DNA of 64,000 nucleotides from an uncultured bacterium (GTDB lineage: Bacteria > Patescibacteriota > Saccharimonadia > Saccharimonadales > 2-12-FULL-41-12). Of the stretch, positions 249-55,171 are shown one piece after another (positions within the stretch are counted from its first letter, which is position 1; each line of letters begins with the position of its first letter). Made by a program: the position numbers and the translations under genes. The stretch spans positions 135,572 to 199,571 of the forward strand of contig CAWIAU010000001.1 in assembly GCA_963834265.1 (NCBI GenBank), read 5' to 3'. Below the pieces are notes generated by a model. That model was not told the origin of the DNA. It searched no databases and was given only the letters and a program-made list of their open reading frames with translations.

Positions 249-689
249 ATGTTACAAAAAGCAAAAAGACTTGTACTACAGGCCGGTATCCTCGGCTTCA
301 TACTAGCTCCGCTGGCTATAACGGGAGTTATTGAAGCTCAGGCACCACCCCCGCCACCCCCCCCTAACAATCTTCAAACCAATGTATGTCAGGGATCAAA
401 GCTAGGATTTACCGATGCGCCCACCGAAACATGTGCCGCAGCAACCGCCGAAGGTGAAACCAGAATCAACACTCTCATAATTAAGTTAGTTAATGTTTTC
501 TCTATCATCGTCGGCATCGTAGCTGTGGTTATGATAATTTACGGCGGCTTCCGTTATATCACCTCCGGTGGCGACTCCGGTAATGTTACCAGCGCCAAAA
601 ACACTGTACTCTTTGCTATCGTAGGTTTGATAATCGTGGCTATGGCCCAGTTCATCGTCAAATTCGTGCTGAATAAGTCAACAACGTAG
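249..689 (+). CDS. VirB2/TrbC-like (T4SS pilin-like) small membrane protein, paralog 2
   Basis: 146-aa ORF with an AAGGA RBS upstream. Signal-peptide-like N-terminus, poly-Pro linker and Cys pair, then TM1 (VFSIIVGIVAVVMIIYGGF), loop RYITSGGDSGNVTSAKN and TM2. This hairpin topology is typical of VirB2/TrbC pilins. Confidence 0.75.
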   Translation: MLQKAKRLVLQAGILGFILAPLAITGVIEAQAPPPPPPPNNLQTNVCQGSKLGFTDAPTETCAAATAEGETRINTLIIKLVNVFSIIVGIVAVVMIIYGGFRYITSGGDSGNVTSAKNTVLFAIVGLIIVAMAQFIVKFVLNKSTT

Positions 690-722
690 TAGAATAATAA
701 GAAATAAAACAGGAGATACAAT

Positions 723-1142
723 ATGTTAGGAAAATTCAAAAAACGGATACTACAGATAAGCGTTTTAAGCTTGCTGATAGCACCGGGATTTGCCGTAGCC
801 ACCGTTTCAGCCCAGGCAAATATTCAGGGTGCCAGCTGTCAGGGTTCAGACTTACAGTTCGGGGCGCCGGTTGACTGTGTAGCGGCCACAGCCGAAGGTG
901 AAACTAAGATTAACACTCTTATCACCCAGATAATCAACGTCTTCTCCATCATCGTCGGCATCGTAGCCGTCATCATGATGATTTACGGCGGCTTTCGCTA
1001 TATTACCTCCGGCGGTGACTCAGGCAATGTTACCAGCGCCAAAAACACAATCCTCTATGCGATTATTGGTTTGATTATCGTCGCCCTTGCCCAGTTCATA
1101 GTCAAATTCGTACTCAATAAAGCCACGACAGCCGGCCCATAG
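723..1142 (+). CDS. VirB2/TrbC-like (T4SS pilin-like) small membrane protein, paralog 3
   Basis: 139-aa ORF with GGAGA RBS. Same architecture and a near-identical C-terminal module (NVFSIIVGIVAVIMMIYGGFRYITSGGDSGNVTSAKNTILYAIIGLIIVALAQFIVKFVLNK). Confidence 0.75.
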   Translation: MLGKFKKRILQISVLSLLIAPGFAVATVSAQANIQGASCQGSDLQFGAPVDCVAATAEGETKINTLITQIINVFSIIVGIVAVIMMIYGGFRYITSGGDSGNVTSAKNTILYAIIGLIIVALAQFIVKFVLNKATTAGP

Positions 1143-1158
1143 GCTATAGTAAGAAACC

Positions 1159-1614
1159 ATGATGAAAGCCCTTCGGAGAATAATATTGCAACTGGCCTTG
1201 TTCGTTGCATTTATGATAGCCGGACCTGCTATTAGTGCCTTTGCCCAGGCTCCGGCGCCGCCTCCTGTGCCACCTGCTACTTCAGAAGAAACTAAAGCCA
1301 ATCTGTGCTCAGGGGCTAATCTGGAATTTTCGGGCGGTGTTGGCGATACGGCCCGTCAATGTAACAGGGATGGTAACCCTCAGGGTAAAATTAACGATCT
1401 TGTTACGCAAATAGTGAATGTTTTCTCTATCCTGGTCGGCATCGTAGCCGTCATCATGATAATTTACGGTGGCTTCCGTTATATCACCTCCGGAGGTGAC
1501 TCAGGCAATGTTACAACGGCCAAGAATACCATTCTATACGCAATCGTAGGTTTGGTAATTGTTGCTTTTGCTCAGATCATAGTCAAATTTGTTCTGAATA
1601 AATCCACAACCTGA
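1159..1614 (+). CDS. VirB2/TrbC-like (T4SS pilin-like) small membrane protein, paralog 4
   Basis: 151-aa ORF with the same architecture and a divergent Pro-rich/Cys-pair N-terminal part. Followed by an intrinsic terminator. Confidence 0.75.
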   Translation: MMKALRRIILQLALFVAFMIAGPAISAFAQAPAPPPVPPATSEETKANLCSGANLEFSGGVGDTARQCNRDGNPQGKINDLVTQIVNVFSILVGIVAVIMIIYGGFRYITSGGDSGNVTTAKNTILYAIVGLVIVAFAQIIVKFVLNKSTT

Positions 1615-2515: not shown

Positions 2516-3187
2516 ATGAATATTGTAGATAGGTGCCTGGAAACTGTAGCGCCACATACCTGTTTTGTATGTGGCCTGGAGGGTGCGTTGCTTTGCAATT
2601 CCTGCTCTATGGAAGCCTTCCTACCTGTTCCTTCCCGTTGCTATCGTTGTCATGTAGCGACCACACAGAGCCGTGTTTGTGCGAATTGCTATCGGGTGGT
2701 GTCTTTGAGTTCCGTATGGGTAGCTACCCGTTATGCGGAGCATGCCAAAGAGCTGATCAGAAGGTTCAAATTTGAACGCGCCAAACAGGCTGCCGATATT
2801 GTGGCCCGCACCATAGATCAGAGATTACCAATACTTCCGGACAGTGTAGTGGTGTCTCATATTCCAACCGCAAATTCCCGTGTCCGTGTCCGGGGCTATG
2901 ATCAGGCGGAGCTCATTGCCCGCCGACTTTGCCGTATCAGGGGGTGGCAGTTTACTTCTCTGTTACTTCGTCGTGGGACGGGACGTCAGCTGGGAGCCAA
3001 GAGGAGTCAACGCTTCATGCAGTTGGAGAGTGCTTTCACGGTTCGTAATCAGAATCTGGTAACCGGAGCCTACGTTTTACTTATTGATGACGTGTTAACC
3101 ACCGGTGCAACCGTGGAAGCTGCTGCCCGATTGCTTAAAGATGCGGGGGCCAAAACTATCGAAGCTGCGGTTTTTGCTCAGCCGTAG
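2516..3187 (+). CDS. comF: ComF family protein (phosphoribosyltransferase-domain competence protein)
   Basis: 223 aa. N-terminal Cys-rich zinc-ribbon-like segment (CFVCG..CNSC..CYRC..CANC) and a C-terminal PRTase motif VLLIDDVLTTGATV. Confidence 0.8.
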   Translation: MNIVDRCLETVAPHTCFVCGLEGALLCNSCSMEAFLPVPSRCYRCHVATTQSRVCANCYRVVSLSSVWVATRYAEHAKELIRRFKFERAKQAADIVARTIDQRLPILPDSVVVSHIPTANSRVRVRGYDQAELIARRLCRIRGWQFTSLLLRRGTGRQLGAKRSQRFMQLESAFTVRNQNLVTGAYVLLIDDVLTTGATVEAAARLLKDAGAKTIEAAVFAQP

Positions 3188-3199
3188 AGTTGACAGACG

Positions 3200-3365
3200 T
3201 GGTGCACCCGGCAAGATTCGACCTTTGTCCGGCAAAACAAAAACTAGTTTTGCTAGAACAAAACCTTTCAGGGTGGCAGGCGGTCAATGTCCACCGGACA
3301 TTGTCGTTCGAATCTTGGACAACCAGACCAAATAAAATACCGATCACTGGGATCGGCGTATTATT
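3200..3365 (-). repeat. tRNA-linked structured module, copy A (3' of tRNA-Arg), ending in a 22-nt duplicate of the tRNA-Arg 3' end
   Basis: 3200-3221 is identical to 3366-3387 (TCGAATCTTGCCGGGTGCACCA on the minus strand). A 48-nt block is near-identical to 4482-4528 in the opposite orientation. A compensatory hairpin is present. Confidence 0.8.
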
Positions 3366-3442
3366 TGGTGCACCCGGCAAGATTCGAACCTGCGACCTTT
3401 GGCTCCGCAAGCCAACGCTCTATCCAGCTGAGCTACGGGTGC
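3366..3442 (-). tRNA. tRNA-Arg (anticodon GCG)
   Basis: 77-nt cloverleaf read by hand: GCACCCG-TA-GCTC-AGCTGGATA-GAGC-G-TTGGC-TTGCGGA-GCCAA-AGGTC-GCAGG-TTCGAAT-CTTGC-CGGGTGC-A-CCA. CCA is encoded. Confidence 0.85.
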
Positions 3443-3598
3443 TTGGTAATGGAGACAAACCTACGGTTTTTCTCATCGCTCTTCGGCAAAGCCGACCCGC
3501 GGGACGGGCAAGCTTGCTGCTCTTTTCCCTAAAAAACAAAAGGAAAACAGGGGTAATTGTATCAGTTTTGCCCCGGAATAGCCATCTAACCTGCTCCG

Positions 3599-4168
3599 TT
3601 AAAAGCGAATACGTTTCATCAGACGATCGACAGGATGCTCAATACGTTGCTCGTTCGGCAGATGTTCTGACAAAAATTCAATAATGTTTTGTTCCTGGTC
3701 GGGCGGGCAATAGATAGACAGATCGGGCATGAACCTTTGTAACGGCCATAGATTAACACTTGTCAGGACACCTTCATGGTGAATCGAGAAAGATATAAAC
3801 TGTGAATAAGAGTACAATTTACCACCCATGACAATTCCTTTTGAGTTTACAGTATATTGGAATTCACGGGGTTTTTTGCCCGCGAGGAATCCGAATAAAG
3901 CGGCTACTACCGCGATAGACCCAACCGATATCAGGTCGCCGTCGCTGAGCCAATATGTCAGACCGCAGACAGCCAGAGTAGCTGCAGCAAGCACAAGGTA
4001 CCATACGATGTCTTTTTGGTGCGAAACATATTCCGAAGCCGTCCAGCTGATTGGTTCCAATGTTGATGGTGGTGGTTCGCTCTCCTGATCCGGCACTGAC
4101 GGATCACTTTCTTTTCGAAATGACCACCCTGACTTTTCTTGTTGCTCTTTGTCCATATCCGGTAGCAA
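3599..4168 (-). CDS. Hypothetical membrane protein (two central TM helices)
   Basis: 189-aa ORF with an acidic/Pro-rich N-terminus, then WYLVLAAATLAVCGLTYWL and SIAVVAALFGFLAG hydrophobic segments. No family recognised. Confidence 0.55.
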   Translation of the reverse strand: MLPDMDKEQQEKSGWSFRKESDPSVPDQESEPPPSTLEPISWTASEYVSHQKDIVWYLVLAAATLAVCGLTYWLSDGDLISVGSIAVVAALFGFLAGKKPREFQYTVNSKGIVMGGKLYSYSQFISFSIHHEGVLTSVNLWPLQRFMPDLSIYCPPDQEQNIIEFLSEHLPNEQRIEHPVDRLMKRIRF

Positions 4169-4247
4169 TTATATAGGACTTTCGTGCTTTTGCATCACTG
4201 ATCCGGCGCCACGAAATACAGGTTTTGTTTTATGGGGGCTATACCTC

Positions 4248-4256
4248 TGTTATAAT
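4248..4256 (+). promoter_or_regulatory. Extended -10 promoter element (TGtTATAAT) for tRNA-Ser(GCU)
   Basis: TGTTATAAT lies about 30 nt upstream of the tRNA 5' end. Confidence 0.45.
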
Positions 4257-4285
4257 CTAATCTCGTCCACCCCGCATACAGATAC

Positions 4286-4378
4286 GGAGAGGTACCCAAG
4301 TGGCTGAAGGGGTCGGTTTGCTAAATCGATAGGGGGGCGAAAGTCCCCGCGAGGGTTCGAATCCCTCTCTCTCCGCCA
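4286..4378 (+). tRNA. tRNA-Ser (anticodon GCU)
   Basis: 93-nt type II cloverleaf: GGAGAGG acceptor, anticodon stem TCGGT/ATCGA with loop TTGCTAA, long variable arm, T-arm GAGGG-TTCGAAT-CCCTC. CCA is encoded. Confidence 0.85.
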
Positions 4379-4582
4379 AATATAACGCCCCGCTTTATGT
4401 GGGGTTTTATATTTGGCTTGATCGAAATGAATTCGAACGACAACTGCCAGAGGCAGTTGGCCGCCCACCGCCCCGAAGGGCTTTGTTCTAGCAAAACTAA
4501 TTTTGTTTTGCCGGACAAAGGTCGAATCCCTCATTGTTACAAGTTATACTTTTGCGGGGCTAAGGCGAATCCCTCTCTCCTC
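4379..4582 (+). repeat. tRNA-linked structured module, copy B (3' of tRNA-Ser-GCU), with partial duplicates of the tRNA-Ser 3' end
   Basis: Same module order as copy A. TCGAATCCCTC at 4522-4532 and CGAATCCCTCTCTC at 4566-4579 match the tRNA-Ser T-loop/acceptor 3' strand. Confidence 0.75.
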
Positions 4583-10324: not shown

Positions 10325-10765
10325 ATGATGCCACTTCTTGAGGGTCGGATTGACCGTAAAACTTTTATTATGGGTAGCGCTGTGGGCTTGGGAATTCTAC
10401 TGGCAGTAATTATAATGTTCATAATTCCGATTGGACTGATCGATATCGTGGTCAATCAGTCCCACAGTGTTAATTTCAGGCCGGTTTATTTTATATTTGC
10501 GATTCCGGCTATAGTCTATGCTTTCTACTTCGGTGTTCTTGCTATCAAACGGGCTCATGATATTGGCTTACCTGGCGTTCCTCTGCTAATTATAGTAGGA
10601 ATAGCAGAGTTCATAAGCCGGCTTACGGGCTGGTGGATTCCCCACTTGCTTGCACTGCTGCTGCTGCTATTACTGGTCATTTATCCGAGCCATAAAGGTT
10701 CAAATAAATTCGGACCCCGTCCCCACAAACGCTTCCGCATCGCAAATTTACGCCTGAATAGCTGA
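10325..10765 (+). CDS. DUF805 family membrane protein
   Basis: 146 aa with TM helices. The KRAHDIGLPG motif is characteristic of DUF805. Confidence 0.6.
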   Translation: MMPLLEGRIDRKTFIMGSAVGLGILLAVIIMFIIPIGLIDIVVNQSHSVNFRPVYFIFAIPAIVYAFYFGVLAIKRAHDIGLPGVPLLIIVGIAEFISRLTGWWIPHLLALLLLLLLVIYPSHKGSNKFGPRPHKRFRIANLRLNS

Positions 10766-11026
10766 TTTTGTAGATTCGGGTCCGATATAACCGTCAAGGT
10801 GCATACATGATTCTTCGAAAGCAATGCGATCAGGCTTAAGACCGCGGGGATCAGCCGTACAGAGCGCTTCTGCGTTATAGTTCACCGGGTTGGTGAGTTG
10901 TATTGTCTGATCTGTGGCCAAAGATCCCGGAGATGTTCCGCGTGCGATACCAGTAAAGGTTTTTCTGTCAGCCAATGCCGGAATATTCACGCATCGATCG
11001 TAGCCGGCTGTTGTATCTATACCCAT
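10748..11026 (-). CDS. Hypothetical protein (92 aa), translationally coupled to valS
   Basis: Its ATG overlaps the valS TAA stop (TAATG). No family recognised. Confidence 0.4.
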   Translation of the reverse strand: MGIDTTAGYDRCVNIPALADRKTFTGIARGTSPGSLATDQTIQLTNPVNYNAEALCTADPRGLKPDRIAFEESCMHLDGYIGPESTKSAIQA

Positions 11027-21613: not shown

Positions 21614-22744
21614 ATGGTAGATAGAACTATTGAACCGCAACTGAGAAATAAACTTGGGAAAGGGCGGGTACTGGTAATTTATGGACCGCGGCGGGTGGGC
21701 AAGACTACCTTGGCCCGGAAATTGCTTGGTGAAGCGCCCAAAGGCGAGCAGCTGTATTTGAACTGTGATGAGTTGGCTACACAGGACGCGCTGAAGCCTA
21801 CGAGTCTGGCTTCTCTGGAGCGGGCTATCGGCAGTGCTAAGCGTATTGTTATCGACGAGGCCCAGCGGGTAGTGAACATCGGCCTGACGCTCAAACTGCT
21901 GGTTGACGAACATCCGGAGCTGGATATTATCGCCACTGGCTCCTCGTCATTTGATCTGGCCAACAAAATCAAAGAACCTTTGACCGGCCGGAGTTATGAA
22001 TTCTTCCTGCCGCCGCTGTCGGTAGGGGAGATCAAGTCCGGGCTTGGCTACAGCAATATCCAGATGGAAACACTCATCGAGCGATTACTCCGTTTCGGTA
22101 GCTATCCGGGGATTATTCTGGAAGATGAGGCTCAGGCAGCCGAAGAACTAAGCGACATAGCTCAGCGCTATGTATACAAAGACTCAGTCGAACTGCTGGA
22201 ATTGCGCCAACGCCAGCTGTTGCCACCCCTCCTGCAGGCACTGGCCCTAAATATAGGACAGGAAGTGTCTTATAACGAGCTGGGCGTGAAGTTAGGCGTG
22301 AAGCTGGAAACAGTAGAACGTTATATCACGCTACTGGAAGCGGCTTTTATCATCTACCGTGTGTCTGCTCTGACAGGCAAACAGGGCAGCCTGAGCAGTC
22401 GCAAGCGCAAGGTGTATTTCTATGACCTGGGTATCCGGAACGCCCTGATCCAGAGCCTGCAGCCGATGTCGATGCGGTCCGATAAAGCCGCGCTCTGGGA
22501 AAACTTCTGTATGAACGAACGCATGAAGTGGTGGCAGGGACATACAGGGAATCCAGAGCGTTATTACTGGCGGGGTCTCACCGGACAAGTGGATCTGGTT
22601 GAGTCTATCGATAACAAATGGCAGGCCTTTGACTTCCGGTTAGAGGACGAGAAAGTACGCGTCCCCAAATATTTCACCGAAACATATCCCTCCACTACCC
22701 ACGAAGTAGTTCATCCCAAAAATTTCTTCGGGTGGTTATCTTAG
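21614..22744 (+). CDS. AAA+ ATPase with C-terminal DUF4143-like domain (COG1373-type)
   Basis: 376 aa. Walker A VIYGPRRVGKTTL and Walker B RIVIDEAQ. The C-terminal half has the typical DUF4143 layout. Confidence 0.75.
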   Translation: MVDRTIEPQLRNKLGKGRVLVIYGPRRVGKTTLARKLLGEAPKGEQLYLNCDELATQDALKPTSLASLERAIGSAKRIVIDEAQRVVNIGLTLKLLVDEHPELDIIATGSSSFDLANKIKEPLTGRSYEFFLPPLSVGEIKSGLGYSNIQMETLIERLLRFGSYPGIILEDEAQAAEELSDIAQRYVYKDSVELLELRQRQLLPPLLQALALNIGQEVSYNELGVKLGVKLETVERYITLLEAAFIIYRVSALTGKQGSLSSRKRKVYFYDLGIRNALIQSLQPMSMRSDKAALWENFCMNERMKWWQGHTGNPERYYWRGLTGQVDLVESIDNKWQAFDFRLEDEKVRVPKYFTETYPSTTHEVVHPKNFFGWLS

Positions 22745-36507: not shown

Positions 36508-38288
36508 ATGGATGCGGTAGCAGAGGTTAAGGCGCGACTCAGTATTGAGGACGTAATCAGCGAATATGTGGTACTCAAGCGTGCCGGGCGCAATTTCAAG
36601 GGGCTGAGCCCTTTTAGTAACGAAAAGACACCTAGCTTTGTAGTCAGTCCTGAGAAGCAGATCTGGCACGACTTCAGCTCAGGGCGGGGCGGCGATATCT
36701 TCACATTCGTACAAGAAGTCGAGGGGCTGGATTTTAAAGGTACTCTGGAGCTACTGGCGCGAAAAGCTGGCGTGGACCTGGAACAGTTCCAAACCAAGGG
36801 TGGGCGCTCTGGTCCGGATAAAGAACGGCTTTATAATGCGTTAGATGCGGCTGCCAAATTCTATCAGGTACAGTTTGGCGCCAACAAAGACGCCTATAAC
36901 TACATTCTCAAAACACGCGCCTATTCCAAAAAGACAGTTCTGGAGTTTCGCTTGGGCTATAGCCCGAATTCGGAGCGTTCGCTGACCGATTATTTACTCA
37001 AGCGAGGATATAGTGAACAAGAAATTAAGGCAGCGGGCCTTTCTACTATGCGCCGAAATGGTTCGAGCGACATGTTTCGGGGCCGAATTATGGTGCCGCT
37101 CATGGACGGATTCGGAAGAGTTATCGGATTCACTGCCGGCTGCTGGCCGATGAACCAAATGCACCCAAATACATTAATACACCGCAAACTCCGCTATACG
37201 ATAAAAGCCGTCATGTATTCGGTTTACATCTGGCCAAAAAAGACATTCGTGACAATAAATTCTCGGTGTTAGTGGAGGGTAATATGGATGTTGTCGCCAG
37301 CCATCAGGCCGGTGTACGTAATGTCGTCGCTACTGCCGGTACAGCTCTGACAGAAGGCCAGCTGAAGGCTCTGTCCCGACTGGCACCGGATGTACGTCTG
37401 GCATTTGATCAGGACCGGGCCGGTCTCGCTGCTGCGGAACGTGCTATACCTATCGCCAGCCGCGTAGATGTGAATCTGAGCATTATCACGATTCCAAGCG
37501 GCAAAGATCCGGATGATCTGATCAAACAGGATCCGGAGTTATGGAAACAGGCAATTACTAAATCCCAATATGCTTTCGACTGGCTGATGGATCGTTACAA
37601 AGCCGGACTTGATCCGGACAGCGCACAGGGCAAAAAAGAGTTCACGAATGTGCTGCTGGCAGTAGTGCGCGGTTTGACTGATAGTGTCGAGCAGGATCAT
37701 TATCTGACTAAGATTGCGTCTGTCGGCGGTGTCAATTTAGAGGCCCTGCGCGCTAAATTACATAAAACCACACCTGATACACCCGCCAGAAAGCTTAAAT
37801 CCACAGAAAAGCATAATACTCCGGTTGATACCAGGCTGCAACATGAGCAGCGTCGCACAATTTCGCATTTATTATCACTGACTCTTATGCAGCAGGTGAC
37901 ACGGGAATATCTGGAGATGATCCATCAGGATATGATTGACGATGCTCAGCAGAAAACGGTTTTCAGCTTCCTCAGGAAAAATCCTGAGTTCAGGGGAGAC
38001 CTTGCGACAGCTGAGGAGTTGCAACCCATATCAGATTATGTTAAAATTTTATCACTACTCTTTGAAGAACTTTACAGCACTGTCGATACGTTAGAGCTTC
38101 AATATGAAGCGGCGCGACTAGGAGCCCGGGTGGTAGAAAATTTCGTAAAACAACAAAAGACAATTCTGGCAGGTGAATTACAGAACGCGAGCGAAACTGA
38201 CAGTCAGGAATTACTCGCCCGTGTTCGCGAGCTGGATAAATTATTAAAGATGAGTAAGACAATATCAGCGAGGCAAACTAATGGTTGA
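36508..38288 (+). pseudogene. dnaG: DNA primase DnaG, reading frame broken by a -1 shift near 37134-37140 (ORFs 36508-37272 and 37266-38288)
   Basis: ORF1 ends with ..FRGRIMVPLMDGFGRVIGFT, then reads nonsense. The -1 frame continues RLLADEPNAPKYINTPQTPLYDKSRHVFGLHLAKKDIRDNKFSVLVEGNMDVVASHQAG, the canonical TOPRIM entry. This could be a true frameshift or an assembly indel. Confidence 0.85.
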
Positions 38289-54475: not shown

Positions 54476-55171
54476 GTGGCTACAGACAGACAAATGACTG
54501 AACTGAAAGAGCGGATGAAAACTTATAAGCGCAAATACTTGCGTAAAGAATTTAATAGAGTTGATGAATCGGCAACTAGAATCATGGTTAATAGTTTTTT
54601 GACGGACGTGTTGGGCTACAAAGAACTTGAAGAAATTAAGACAGAGTTCAGAATTCGTGGGGAATATGCGGATTATGTCGTACAGCTGAAACGTAAAAAA
54701 CACTTTGTTATCGAAGTTAAGTCAATTCAGCTTGATCTAAATGATAAACACCTACGGCAAAGCCTAAATTATGCTGCTAATGAAGGAATTGACTGGATTG
54801 TCCTATTGAACGGACGGCAAGTTGAACTCTATCGAGTTAATTTTGGTAAACCAATCAGCAGTACATTGATTTACTCGATTGATTTAATGGATAAAGATGC
54901 TTTCAAAAAATGCCCAGATCAACTTTGGTATCTTACTAAAATCGCAGTGATTAAGGGTGAGTTAGAGGAATTTTGGAAACGTTCTAACGCCTTGCAGCTA
55001 GAAAATTTAGCAAAACTAATCTACTCCGAGGAAATAGTGCGAAAAATTAGAAATGACCTCAAAAATAAAACCGGAATTTATTTCCAGCTAGAAGATGTAT
55101 CAGCTGGTCTCTACGATGTAATAACTAGAAAAGTAGTTTTCTTAAAGCCTAAACTTCGTTCAAAGAAATAA
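54476..55171 (+). CDS. Type I restriction enzyme HsdR N-terminal domain-like (PD-(D/E)xK nuclease fold) stand-alone protein
   Basis: 231 aa with a GTG start and GGAG RBS. DESATRIMVNSFLTDVLGY ... ADYVV ... VIEVKS ... QSLNYA ... WIVLLNGRQVELYRV matches the HSDR_N pattern. Confidence 0.7.
   Translation: MATDRQMTELKERMKTYKRKYLRKEFNRVDESATRIMVNSFLTDVLGYKELEEIKTEFRIRGEYADYVVQLKRKKHFVIEVKSIQLDLNDKHLRQSLNYAANEGIDWIVLLNGRQVELYRVNFGKPISSTLIYSIDLMDKDAFKKCPDQLWYLTKIAVIKGELEEFWKRSNALQLENLAKLIYSEEIVRKIRNDLKNKTGIYFQLEDVSAGLYDVITRKVVFLKPKLRSKK

Follow-up and report, generated by a model that had tools for sequence, protein, structure and literature searches.

A folded module behind tRNA genes of Saccharimonadales with ends copied from the neighbouring tRNA: a possible DNA recombination cassette

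What is the small, non-coding module that lies directly behind two different tRNA genes of one bacterial chromosome, and why does each copy end in a duplicate of the 3' end of its own tRNA? The question arises from a 64,000-nt stretch of an uncultured member of the Saccharimonadales (GenBank assembly GCA_963834265.1, contig CAWIAU010000001.1, positions 135,572 to 199,571), which is called the window below. Copy A of the module runs from 3365 down to 3200 on the minus strand after tRNA-Arg, and copy B from 4379 to 4582 on the plus strand after tRNA-Ser-GCU. A sequence-only reading had reported the same module behind both genes, and all the features that it listed were found where it had placed them. 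For the motif ATTCGAACGACAA, the 64 kb contain exactly two sites, 3301-3313 (-) and 4431-4443 (+), against 0.07 expected, and the 28-mer TTTTGTTTTGCCGGACAAAGGTCGAATC also occurs twice, with 0 mismatches and 0 expected. Our tentative answer, to which we give somewhat less than an even chance, is that the module is a small DNA-level recombination cassette, specific to a lineage within the Saccharimonadales, which resides at the 3' ends of tRNA genes.

The order of parts given by the sequence-only reading stands, with the correction that it had missed the nature of the 5' end, which is the reverse complement of the T-loop and T-stem of the tRNA. The complete layout is the 3' end of the tRNA (S, positions 55-76), the terminator hairpin, an inverted copy named S', a core, and a second, direct S. 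S' follows the terminator directly and corresponds to tRNA positions 53 to about 76; in the window only its two ends are kept, as TGGT...CAAGATTCGAAC for Arg and TGGC...ATTCGAAC for Ser. A unit measures about 130-250 nt, most of them 158-177, and its core is made of one to four hairpins. T-loop motifs mark both borders of the shared core (ATTCGAAC at its left, (T)CGAATC at its right), and the earlier proposal that the junction between shared and tRNA-specific sequence falls within the T-loop holds in every copy.

Copy A follows the gene for tRNA-Arg (anticodon GCG; 3366-3442, minus strand), which was called by ARAGORN and matched by the Rfam tRNA model with 69.2 bits. All of its parts lie on the minus strand. 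It begins with the terminator-like hairpin and T-run of the tRNA (3328-3365), in whose outer stem the tRNA CCA pairs with TGG. S' (TGGTCTGGTTGTCCAAGATTCGAAC, 3306-3330) was recognised by local alignment as the inverted tRNA-Arg 3' end: its inner part at 3306-3317 (CAAGATTCGAAC) is an exact 12/12 reverse complement of tRNA-Arg positions 53-64, and its outer TGGT is the reverse complement of ACCA. There follow hairpin 1 (CAATGTCC-GGT-GGACATTG, 3285-3303), a linker (ACCGCC) with a weak hairpin 2 (3263-3284), and hairpin 3, referred to as type a (3224-3262), which holds the bulk of a 48-nt block shared with copy B. This block is a two-tier hairpin, in copy A with the outer stem TTTGTTC/GGACAAA and the inner stem GCAAAAC/GTTTTGC. 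The terminal S (3200-3221) is an exact direct copy of tRNA-Arg positions 55-76 including CCA, and the 22-nt direct repeat already reported (3200-3221 = 3366-3387) proved exact. The closing stem, P1, has 10 bp, formed by 3212-3221 with 3308-3317.

Copy B, on the plus strand, follows tRNA-Ser (anticodon GCU; 4286-4378), again called by ARAGORN and the Rfam tRNA model. Behind the terminator-like hairpin and T-run (4379-4416), S' (TGGCTTGATCGAAATGAATTCGAAC, 4414-4438) was assigned by reasoning from sequence: its length and both ends (TGGC..ATTCGAAC) fit an inverted tRNA-Ser 3' end, and its middle is decayed. Hairpin 1 (CAACTGCC-AGA-GGCAGTTG, 4441-4459) is followed by the linker and hairpin 2 (4460-4481, with GCCC-CGAA-GGGC at 4470-4481), by a type a hairpin 3 (4482-4519) and by S, TCGAATCCCTC, at 4522-4532, which equals tRNA-Ser positions 55-65. 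P1 is formed here by 4426-4436 with 4522-4527 and 4531-4535, and a CCC bulge is left. Farther out, at 4550-4582, lies the remnant of an older, distal module of type b, homologous to the right end of the Ser-GCU module in the related locus L006; it retains the 3' half of the type b hairpin 3 (TTTTGCGGGGCTAAGG) and a decayed tRNA-Ser 3' copy (CGAATCCCTCTCTC, 4566-4579). Both tRNA-Ser matches of the earlier description, TCGAATCCCTC and CGAATCCCTCTCTC, are thus present in the form described.

The two copies are inverted around 3443-4285, with arms of 107 nt (3235-3341 and 4403-4509) that are 72% complementary. Their alignment agrees with the earlier count of one substitution and one 1-nt indel in the 48-nt block. 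Hairpin 1 had been described as a 5-bp stem with different but still complementary sequences; the complementarity of differing stems was borne out, but the stem has 8 bp in both copies, with three compensatory pairs between them. The stem type of hairpin 1 in copy B recurs in module 2 of L019 and in the insertion of L017, two further related loci. A palindromic operator for a dimeric protein was also considered and rejected, since the stems differ between copies within one genome.

The simplest origin for such sequences would be a decayed tRNA pseudogene or a tandem tRNA duplicate. S and S' do derive from a tRNA, and the core of module 1 in L019 even includes an 18-nt inverted segment that matches the variable-arm/T-stem region of tRNA-Ser-GCU with one gap. 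However, ARAGORN and the Rfam tRNA model (RF00005) called the true tRNAs and no module, the tRNA contributes no more than its 3' third, in one inverted and one direct copy, and the core hairpins do not align to tRNA; this origin is largely refuted and only the slightest chance is left to it. A tmRNA (transfer-messenger RNA) or two-piece tmRNA was also rejected: GGATTCGAACGGGA resembles a tmRNA 5' region, but ARAGORN and Rfam gave nothing, and there is no acceptor 5' strand.

Relatives of the locus were reached through the gene for ComF and through ORF189, a 189-aa open reading frame (ORF) between both tRNAs (3599-4168, minus strand). ORF189 encodes a predicted membrane protein without a Pfam match; it is context outside the module, and its synteny served to locate the relatives L006, L007, L017-L025, L029 and L030. 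The related DNA examined amounts to about 200 kb, in loci of about 20 kb, and further modules were sought there by inspecting the sequence 3' of each tRNA. In seven related lineages this gave at least 12 more modules or module-like instances. L006 has modules at Ser-GCU and Ser-UGA, L017 one at Ser-GCU with an insertion of about 100 nt in hairpin 2, L018 short forms at Ser-GCU and Ser-UGA, and L019 two tandem units at Ser-GCU. L022-L025 carry, at Ser-GCU, a module with a different core, and L023 has at Ser-UGA a minimal form, in which the tRNA end and its complement make up an 8-bp stem with a 12-nt loop. In L029, module-like units follow Ser-GCU (fold z = -1.2; S' judged by eye) and Arg-GCG (12/14 match to the tRNA end; fold z = -2.7).

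Every instance lies on the tRNA strand, just past the terminator, and ends in the 3' end of its own tRNA, a point that the earlier reading had proposed to check. Of the outcomes named there as refuting, a lack of further copies, a lack of association with tRNAs and an Rfam match, none was obtained. The use of more than one tRNA, which had been suggested, now extends to Ser-GCU, Ser-UGA and Arg-GCG, and Ser-GCU carries a module or module-like unit in 8 of the 8 lineages examined. The end copies of the relatives begin at T-loop position 55 or 56, and the two tRNA-end copies of a unit stand 131-248 nt apart. S matches its own tRNA at 22/22 positions in the window (Arg), 21/21 in L018 and 22/22 in L019, and several copies are perfect through CCA. 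S also tracks lineage-specific changes of the acceptor stem (CCCTCTCTC and CCCTCCCTC; CCCTCCTCCT only in L029). S' is an inverted tRNA-end copy at 12/12 positions in copy A and, counted by eye, at about 18/24 in L017 and about 19/24 in L022 (TGGCTGCGAGAAGAGGGATCCGAAC). A covariance model built from five long copies recovered three copies outside its training set, in L017 with 66.9 bits and in L018 with 37.2 and 32.2 bits. Over 196 kb it found no match away from tRNAs except the tRNA T-arms themselves (8-17 bits); the two copies in the window are both at tRNAs, and none stands elsewhere in the 196 kb. Searches beyond these loci gave less: an exact 21-mer and 20-mer of the 48-nt block had 0 matches in GTDB genome representatives and 5 in JGI metagenomes, all of them chance matches within coding sequence with no tRNA nearby, and a ComF search for syntenic loci in genome contigs returned distant, non-syntenic loci only.

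Since the module starts with the reverse complement of the tRNA end, its two ends pair with each other and so close a four-way junction. For S' two partners are possible. Paired with the tRNA end, it gives one long hairpin across the terminator, and this palindrome of tRNA end, terminator and S', folded as DNA, reaches z = -5.6 in the window (3300-3395) and z = -9.1 in L022. With the distal S it gives P1, with 8-13 bp (about 19 bp in L022), which closes a four-way junction with hairpins 1-3. This junction was predicted separately for each long copy, with z between -2.7 and -4.5 as RNA, and with z = -4.2 and -5.2 in foldings as DNA. P1 covaries with tRNA identity, CAAG/CTTG in Arg and GGG/CCC in Ser. 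In copy B the tail departs from the tRNA sequence after CCCTC while its pairing with the left flank continues (AATGA/TCATT), so that pairing, and not tRNA identity, is what is preserved there.

The covariation of the stems, which had been proposed as a check in further copies, was found. By using RNAalifold on the five long copies, 38 pairs were obtained, 11 of them with compensatory changes; shuffled 3' partners gave 4.0±1.5 compensatory pairs, with 0 of 500 shuffles reaching 11, and partners slid by 1-3 columns gave 0-5. Paired cells amounted to 86%, compared with 38-52% when the partners were slid by 1-3 columns. Coming from five sequences, this covariation lends the predicted fold moderate, not overwhelming, support.

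A conserved fold of this kind could also belong to a structured RNA, an alternative that the sequence-only reading had raised and that we consider unlikely. Such an RNA would work in cis within tRNA transcripts that read through the terminator, or be a small RNA from either strand, with S' antisense to the 3' third of the tRNA and the distal S mimicking that third. Its four-way junction might serve as decoy or competitor toward a factor that recognises the 3' end of the tRNA, or might control how read-through precursors fold, by a choice between S'/tRNA end and S'/S pairing. The conserved and covarying four-way junction is in keeping with such an RNA, as are the RNA fold scores of the long copies (z -2.7 to -4.5), the occupation of Ser-GCU in 8/8 lineages, and the conservation across species of the type a hairpin sequence, loops included. 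Since the terminators are flanked on either side by A- and T-tracts, they would stop an antisense transcript too. Nevertheless, no promoter-like site was found inside or beside the modules and the sense strand lies behind a terminator. G·T pairs (7) do not exceed A·C pairs (10), and there is hence no sign of one RNA strand as the selected molecule. Moreover, the tail of S is decayed or truncated in copy B, L017, L022 and module 2 of L019, and core size varies between a 12-nt loop (L023) and about 170 nt (L017), an unusual spread if a single RNA function were served; the pattern of filled and empty sites and the tandem arrays described below would be unexpected for a housekeeping RNA.

Rfam likewise speaks against a known RNA: at the gathering threshold only the 4 tRNAs match, and at E<=10 both window modules and L019 gave chance matches only, far below threshold, which agrees with the earlier statement that the module resembles no known RNA family. 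The lack of strand asymmetry, the position behind a terminator and the want of a promoter-like site point to DNA rather than RNA. As a separate observation, a perfect TTGACA (window 3190-3195, +) closely precedes the reverse-complemented copy of the tRNA-Arg end; AAGATT, 17 nt farther downstream, is the best match to a -10 element but a poor one, and no promoter was called. Retrons, group I/II introns, hammerhead or other ribozymes and omega or bridge RNAs were rejected as well, as there is no motif, no Rfam match and no adjacent gene for a reverse transcriptase, TnpB, IscB or IS110.

The distribution of the units shows signs of turnover. At tRNA-Arg the window has a module and L029 a module-like unit; the site is empty in L006, L007, L017, L018, L019, L020 and L022. 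At Ser-UGA, L006, L018 and L023 have a unit and the window has none, and the Ser-CGA site is empty wherever it was seen (window, L006, L018 and L029). Tandem arrays occur: the two units of L019 measure about 170 and 172 nt, the proximal S being perfect (22/22) and the distal one decayed, and in the window copy B lies proximal to the older type b remnant (4550-4582). Nesting is seen in the GGTGAGAACTGCC.GTGGCAGTTCGCAAGG that the L017 insertion and L019 unit 2 have in common, in the 18-nt inverted tRNA-Ser-GCU segment of L019 unit 1 mentioned above, and in the L022 core, which contains AAATTCGAGC...GTTCGAATTT.

Cores are also mosaic. The two modules of L006 are identical over 40 nt on the left, and the two of the window share the 48-nt block on the right. 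Between species, the type a hairpin of copy A and that of the L006 Ser-UGA module agree at 45 of 46 aligned positions. The identity of the block between the window and L006 is 94-98%, depending on how indels are counted and taken as full-length identity, since aligned-only values are inflated for short unrelated pieces; for the same species pair, DNA identity is about 70% in ComF and ORF189 and 78-91% in the tRNAs. The earlier idea of an attachment-site (att) scar or a miniature inverted-repeat transposable element (MITE) is strengthened in one part, as filled and empty sites, tandem arrays and a nearly identical block across species fit a recombining or mobile DNA unit.

No enzyme need be involved if palindromes grow at tRNA terminators by template switching and gene conversion, leaving a functionless by-product. 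Template switching at quasi-palindromes is an established mutational mechanism. Fold-back synthesis would copy the tRNA end into S', gene conversion would homogenise S, S' and the cores, and the hairpins would persist only through palindrome self-correction. The tRNA end, terminator and S' do form one long quasi-palindrome centred on the terminator loop, S and S' follow the local tRNA sequence as they would under gene conversion, mosaic blocks are identical within genomes, and there is neither strand bias nor a recombinase nearby. Such a process leaves unexplained, however, that lineages with only 46-74% identity in their ComF proteins share a three-hairpin core bearing compensatory changes, that tRNAs which are not equivalent carry, in different species, a block of 94-98% identity, and that six units have the regular length of 158-172 nt. 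Nor does it account for the exact proximal and decayed distal tRNA-end copies of L019, or for module-free tRNAs with the same T-loop and similar terminators, such as Ser-CGA, empty wherever seen. A by-product of this sort is in our judgement an unlikely explanation.

Decay of a different kind would be the case if the modules were unselected scars of large prophages or conjugative elements, that is, att remnants or classical cis-mobilisable elements (CIMEs). In favour of scars stand the direct repeat of the tRNA 3' end with its start in the T-loop, the classical hallmark of islands integrated into tRNA genes (PMC4383910), and the position of the tRNA cluster next to a conserved block of type IV secretion genes. 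Against scars stand the lack of any integrase remnant or cargo, the same internal deletion that would have to recur in every lineage, the conserved and covarying structure, the inverted S', which is no part of a classical attL/attR pair, and the failure to find a distant second copy of any tRNA end in the loci. A simple decaying att scar or classical CIME does not fit the folded structure that was found, which is conserved and bears at its two ends copies of the tRNA 3' end in inverted orientation, and we hold it to be improbable. A casposon-like target duplication was rejected, since no inverted repeats stand at the required positions.

In the recombination cassette that we favour, units would come and go, stack up and be swapped through recombination centred on the T-loop, which has the palindrome TTCGAA and whose motifs flank the core at either side. 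The catalyst may be a recombinase acting in trans from a gene elsewhere in the genome, and a folded single-stranded or cruciform form of the DNA may be the site that it recognises. The distal S would be a displaced former tRNA end, comparable to what is seen in islands in tRNA genes. A recombinase with its crossover at TTCGAA could act in either orientation, which would produce S' and alternating arrays. The anatomy, the exclusive tie to tRNAs, the tRNA-specific ends, the covarying structure, the filled and empty sites, the arrays and the mosaicism are observed; the T-loop crossover, the enzyme acting in trans and the folded DNA as its substrate are inferred. Islands in tRNA genes are recognised by their displaced tRNA fragment, as outlined in PMC4383910, and the same logic is applied here.

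In integron attC sites, REPINs and the ends of IS200/IS605 elements, hairpins are the structure recognised by the machinery; REPINs are hairpin-forming doublets of repetitive extragenic palindromic (REP) sequences. By analogy, the hairpins of the module may be a structure recognised by such machinery. A more specific version, to which we would assign only a small chance, is that the modules form an undescribed class of cassette in the Candidate Phyla Radiation (CPR), with a folded-DNA site closed by a copy of the 3' end of its own tRNA and mimicking the T-arm target. If this class existed, the palindromic TTCGAA would permit exchange in either orientation, which would explain S', the alternating arrays and the swapping of cassettes between Ser and Arg, and possibly the inversion of the tRNA segment of the window described below.

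Several points weigh against a recombination cassette. No integrase, transposase or other recombinase was found by Pfam among the 50 ORFs of the window, and in the seven relatives none was seen among the genes called up to about 10 kb from a module; within these stretches the search for a cognate enzyme proposed earlier came back negative. The units contain no ORF. Four scans of IMG/VR viral contigs with different module motifs gave 0 matches, and blastn of copy A against phage and plasmid records gave none; without a viral, phage or plasmid match, no parent element is known. With its 130-250 bp, a unit would make a very small double-stranded circular intermediate. A unit inserted in the Campbell manner must itself bear the tRNA-specific 3' end and S', and a move from Ser to Arg would consequently need cassette exchange at T-loop sites or gene conversion. 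The filling of Ser-GCU in 8/8 lineages could equally mark an old, vertically kept functional feature, and the type a hairpin could owe its conservation to constraint and not to transfer; 1-2 differences in 48 nt are not significantly below expectation at tRNA-like conservation. The related DNA examined, moreover, is only about 200 kb and includes no complete genome. A literature search for an earlier description of the module found nothing relevant.

The surroundings of the modules have been rearranged. The segment with tRNA-Ser-GCU, ORF189 and tRNA-Arg (3366-4378) is inverted relative to ComF when the window is compared with L017, L018, L019 and L022, and in L006 tRNA-Arg alone is flipped. 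The two inverted modules, with their 107-nt arms, are candidate substrates for such inversions, and two inverted copies could mediate local inversions in general. That copy A was born by simple inversion between modules was rejected, as each module keeps its own cognate tRNA tail. A distal tRNA-end copy lies 10-12 nt from the ComF stop codon in the window (3187-3221) and in L018 (9296-9330), of Arg type in the former and of Ser type in the latter, in each case that of the tRNA now facing ComF. In L006, at 10690-10870, the 255-nt spacer from ComF to the flipped tRNA-Arg holds a separate long inverted repeat (CCATTGCATATCTCTTCTC ... GAGAAAGATATGCAATGG), opposite in polarity to the modules, which may be a remnant of rearrangement. 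From the ComF and HSP20 of the window, a single short-read contig with this ComF was reached (Logan, run ERR12037361; 2452 nt), and it ends about 220 nt past the ComF stop, inside tRNA-Arg and just beyond copy A.

By gene content, the window is an ordinary Saccharimonadales (CPR) chromosome, encoding ValRS, ArgRS, TsaD, GroEL, PolA, DnaG, sigma-70, PNPase, type IV secretion pilins, HSP20 and ComF. At 249-1614 (+), paralogous genes for TrbC/VirB2-like pilins of type IV secretion form an array, and the order pilin array, HSP20, ComF, tRNA-Ser/Arg cluster is the same in L006, L007, L018, L022 and L029, as judged in loci with enough upstream sequence. The tRNA 3' ends point toward this type IV secretion block, which raises the question of an ancient domesticated conjugative element. 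ORF189 has one predicted hydrophobic segment and 37-67% identity among relatives, and it adjoins a Ser-GCU and/or Arg-GCG tRNA in 6/6 relatives with detected tRNAs (L006, L017-L021). Elsewhere in the window, DnaG primase is represented by two overlapping ORFs (36508-38288, +), the first (36508-37272) with the zinc ribbon and N-terminal core and the second (37266-38288) with the Toprim and DnaB-binding domains; a frameshift, a sequencing error or a genuinely split primase are all possible. An AAA_14/DUF4143 ATPase (21614-22744, +) in a stretch of lower GC content and a type I restriction HSDR_N-like domain protein (54476-55171, +; about 41% GC at 54-56 kb) may be defence or accessory genes.

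The genomes of Saccharibacteria and other CPR bacteria are tiny and leave little space for repeats, and not much is known about the mobile DNA and non-coding elements of these bacteria. The modules represent a conserved, structured, tRNA-linked element with ends copied from each host tRNA and signs of turnover without a visible enzyme. They may reveal a new way of targeting tRNA genes, by folded DNA or by symmetric T-loop recombination, which would be of interest to the biology of mobile elements and possibly to site-specific genome engineering in Patescibacteria; alternatively, they may reveal a new tRNA-linked regulatory or decoy structure. On the practical side, modules may break short-read assemblies at tRNA loci, and since they mimic att scars, island-finding tools that use displaced tRNA fragments could be misled.

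Among known systems, islands and prophages in tRNA genes (tyrosine integrase; the T-loop class of Islander) share with the modules the displaced direct copy of the tRNA 3' end from the T-loop, a tRNA gene that stays intact, and tandem stacking, with the best-preserved copy nearest the tRNA in the L019 modules. Unlike islands, the modules have only 130-250 nt, without an integrase or kilobase-scale cargo, carry an extra inverted S' and a conserved, covarying four-way junction, and are present at Ser-GCU in every lineage examined. REPINs and bacterial interspersed mosaic elements (BIMEs), which are inverted REP doublets and alternating arrays moved by REP-associated tyrosine transposases (RAYTs), are alike in forming inverted hairpin doublets just downstream of genes, in the alternation of S and S' as seen in the L019 array, and in keeping structure while linkers vary. 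However, the repeat of the module is the 3' end of a tRNA, specific to that tRNA and not a genome-wide REP consensus; its copy number seems low, and neither a GTAG or CGTC end tag nor, in the stretches read, a RAYT was seen.

Integron attC sites and the attP(+) hairpin of CTX phage offer a parallel for the fold. They too have a base stem built from imperfect inverted repeats, a terminal structure that ranges from a short loop to branched hairpins, and a fold that is kept while sequence is poorly conserved. In addition, the stem reproduces the target-site duplex, and units stack like cassettes. The module differs from attC in its ends, ATTCGAAC and (T)CGAATC in place of R''/L''-L'/R' boxes (RYYYAAC / GTTRRRY), in units without an ORF, and in the lack of an integron integrase or attI nearby. 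It differs from both attC and attP(+) in its target, a tRNA T-arm, and in a single-stranded DNA folding that is only predicted.

The remaining comparison is with CIMEs, the att-flanked remnants of integrative and conjugative elements, and with MITEs. As in CIMEs, direct tRNA-end repeats flank a non-coding unit without recombination genes; as in both, the modules are small, non-autonomous, bounded by repeats resembling recombination sites and present in more than one copy per genome; and as in MITEs, they have terminal inverted repeats (S'/S). In contrast to both, these inverted repeats copy the end of the host tRNA and differ between tRNAs, the modules, in the DNA examined, stand only at tRNA 3' ends and no parent element is known; in contrast to MITEs, there is no short target-site duplication, the S'/S flanks of copies A and B being without a short direct repeat. 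Whether the module is itself a CIME depends on a cognate element that has not been seen. Taken together, the module works most like an att-flanked miniature element.

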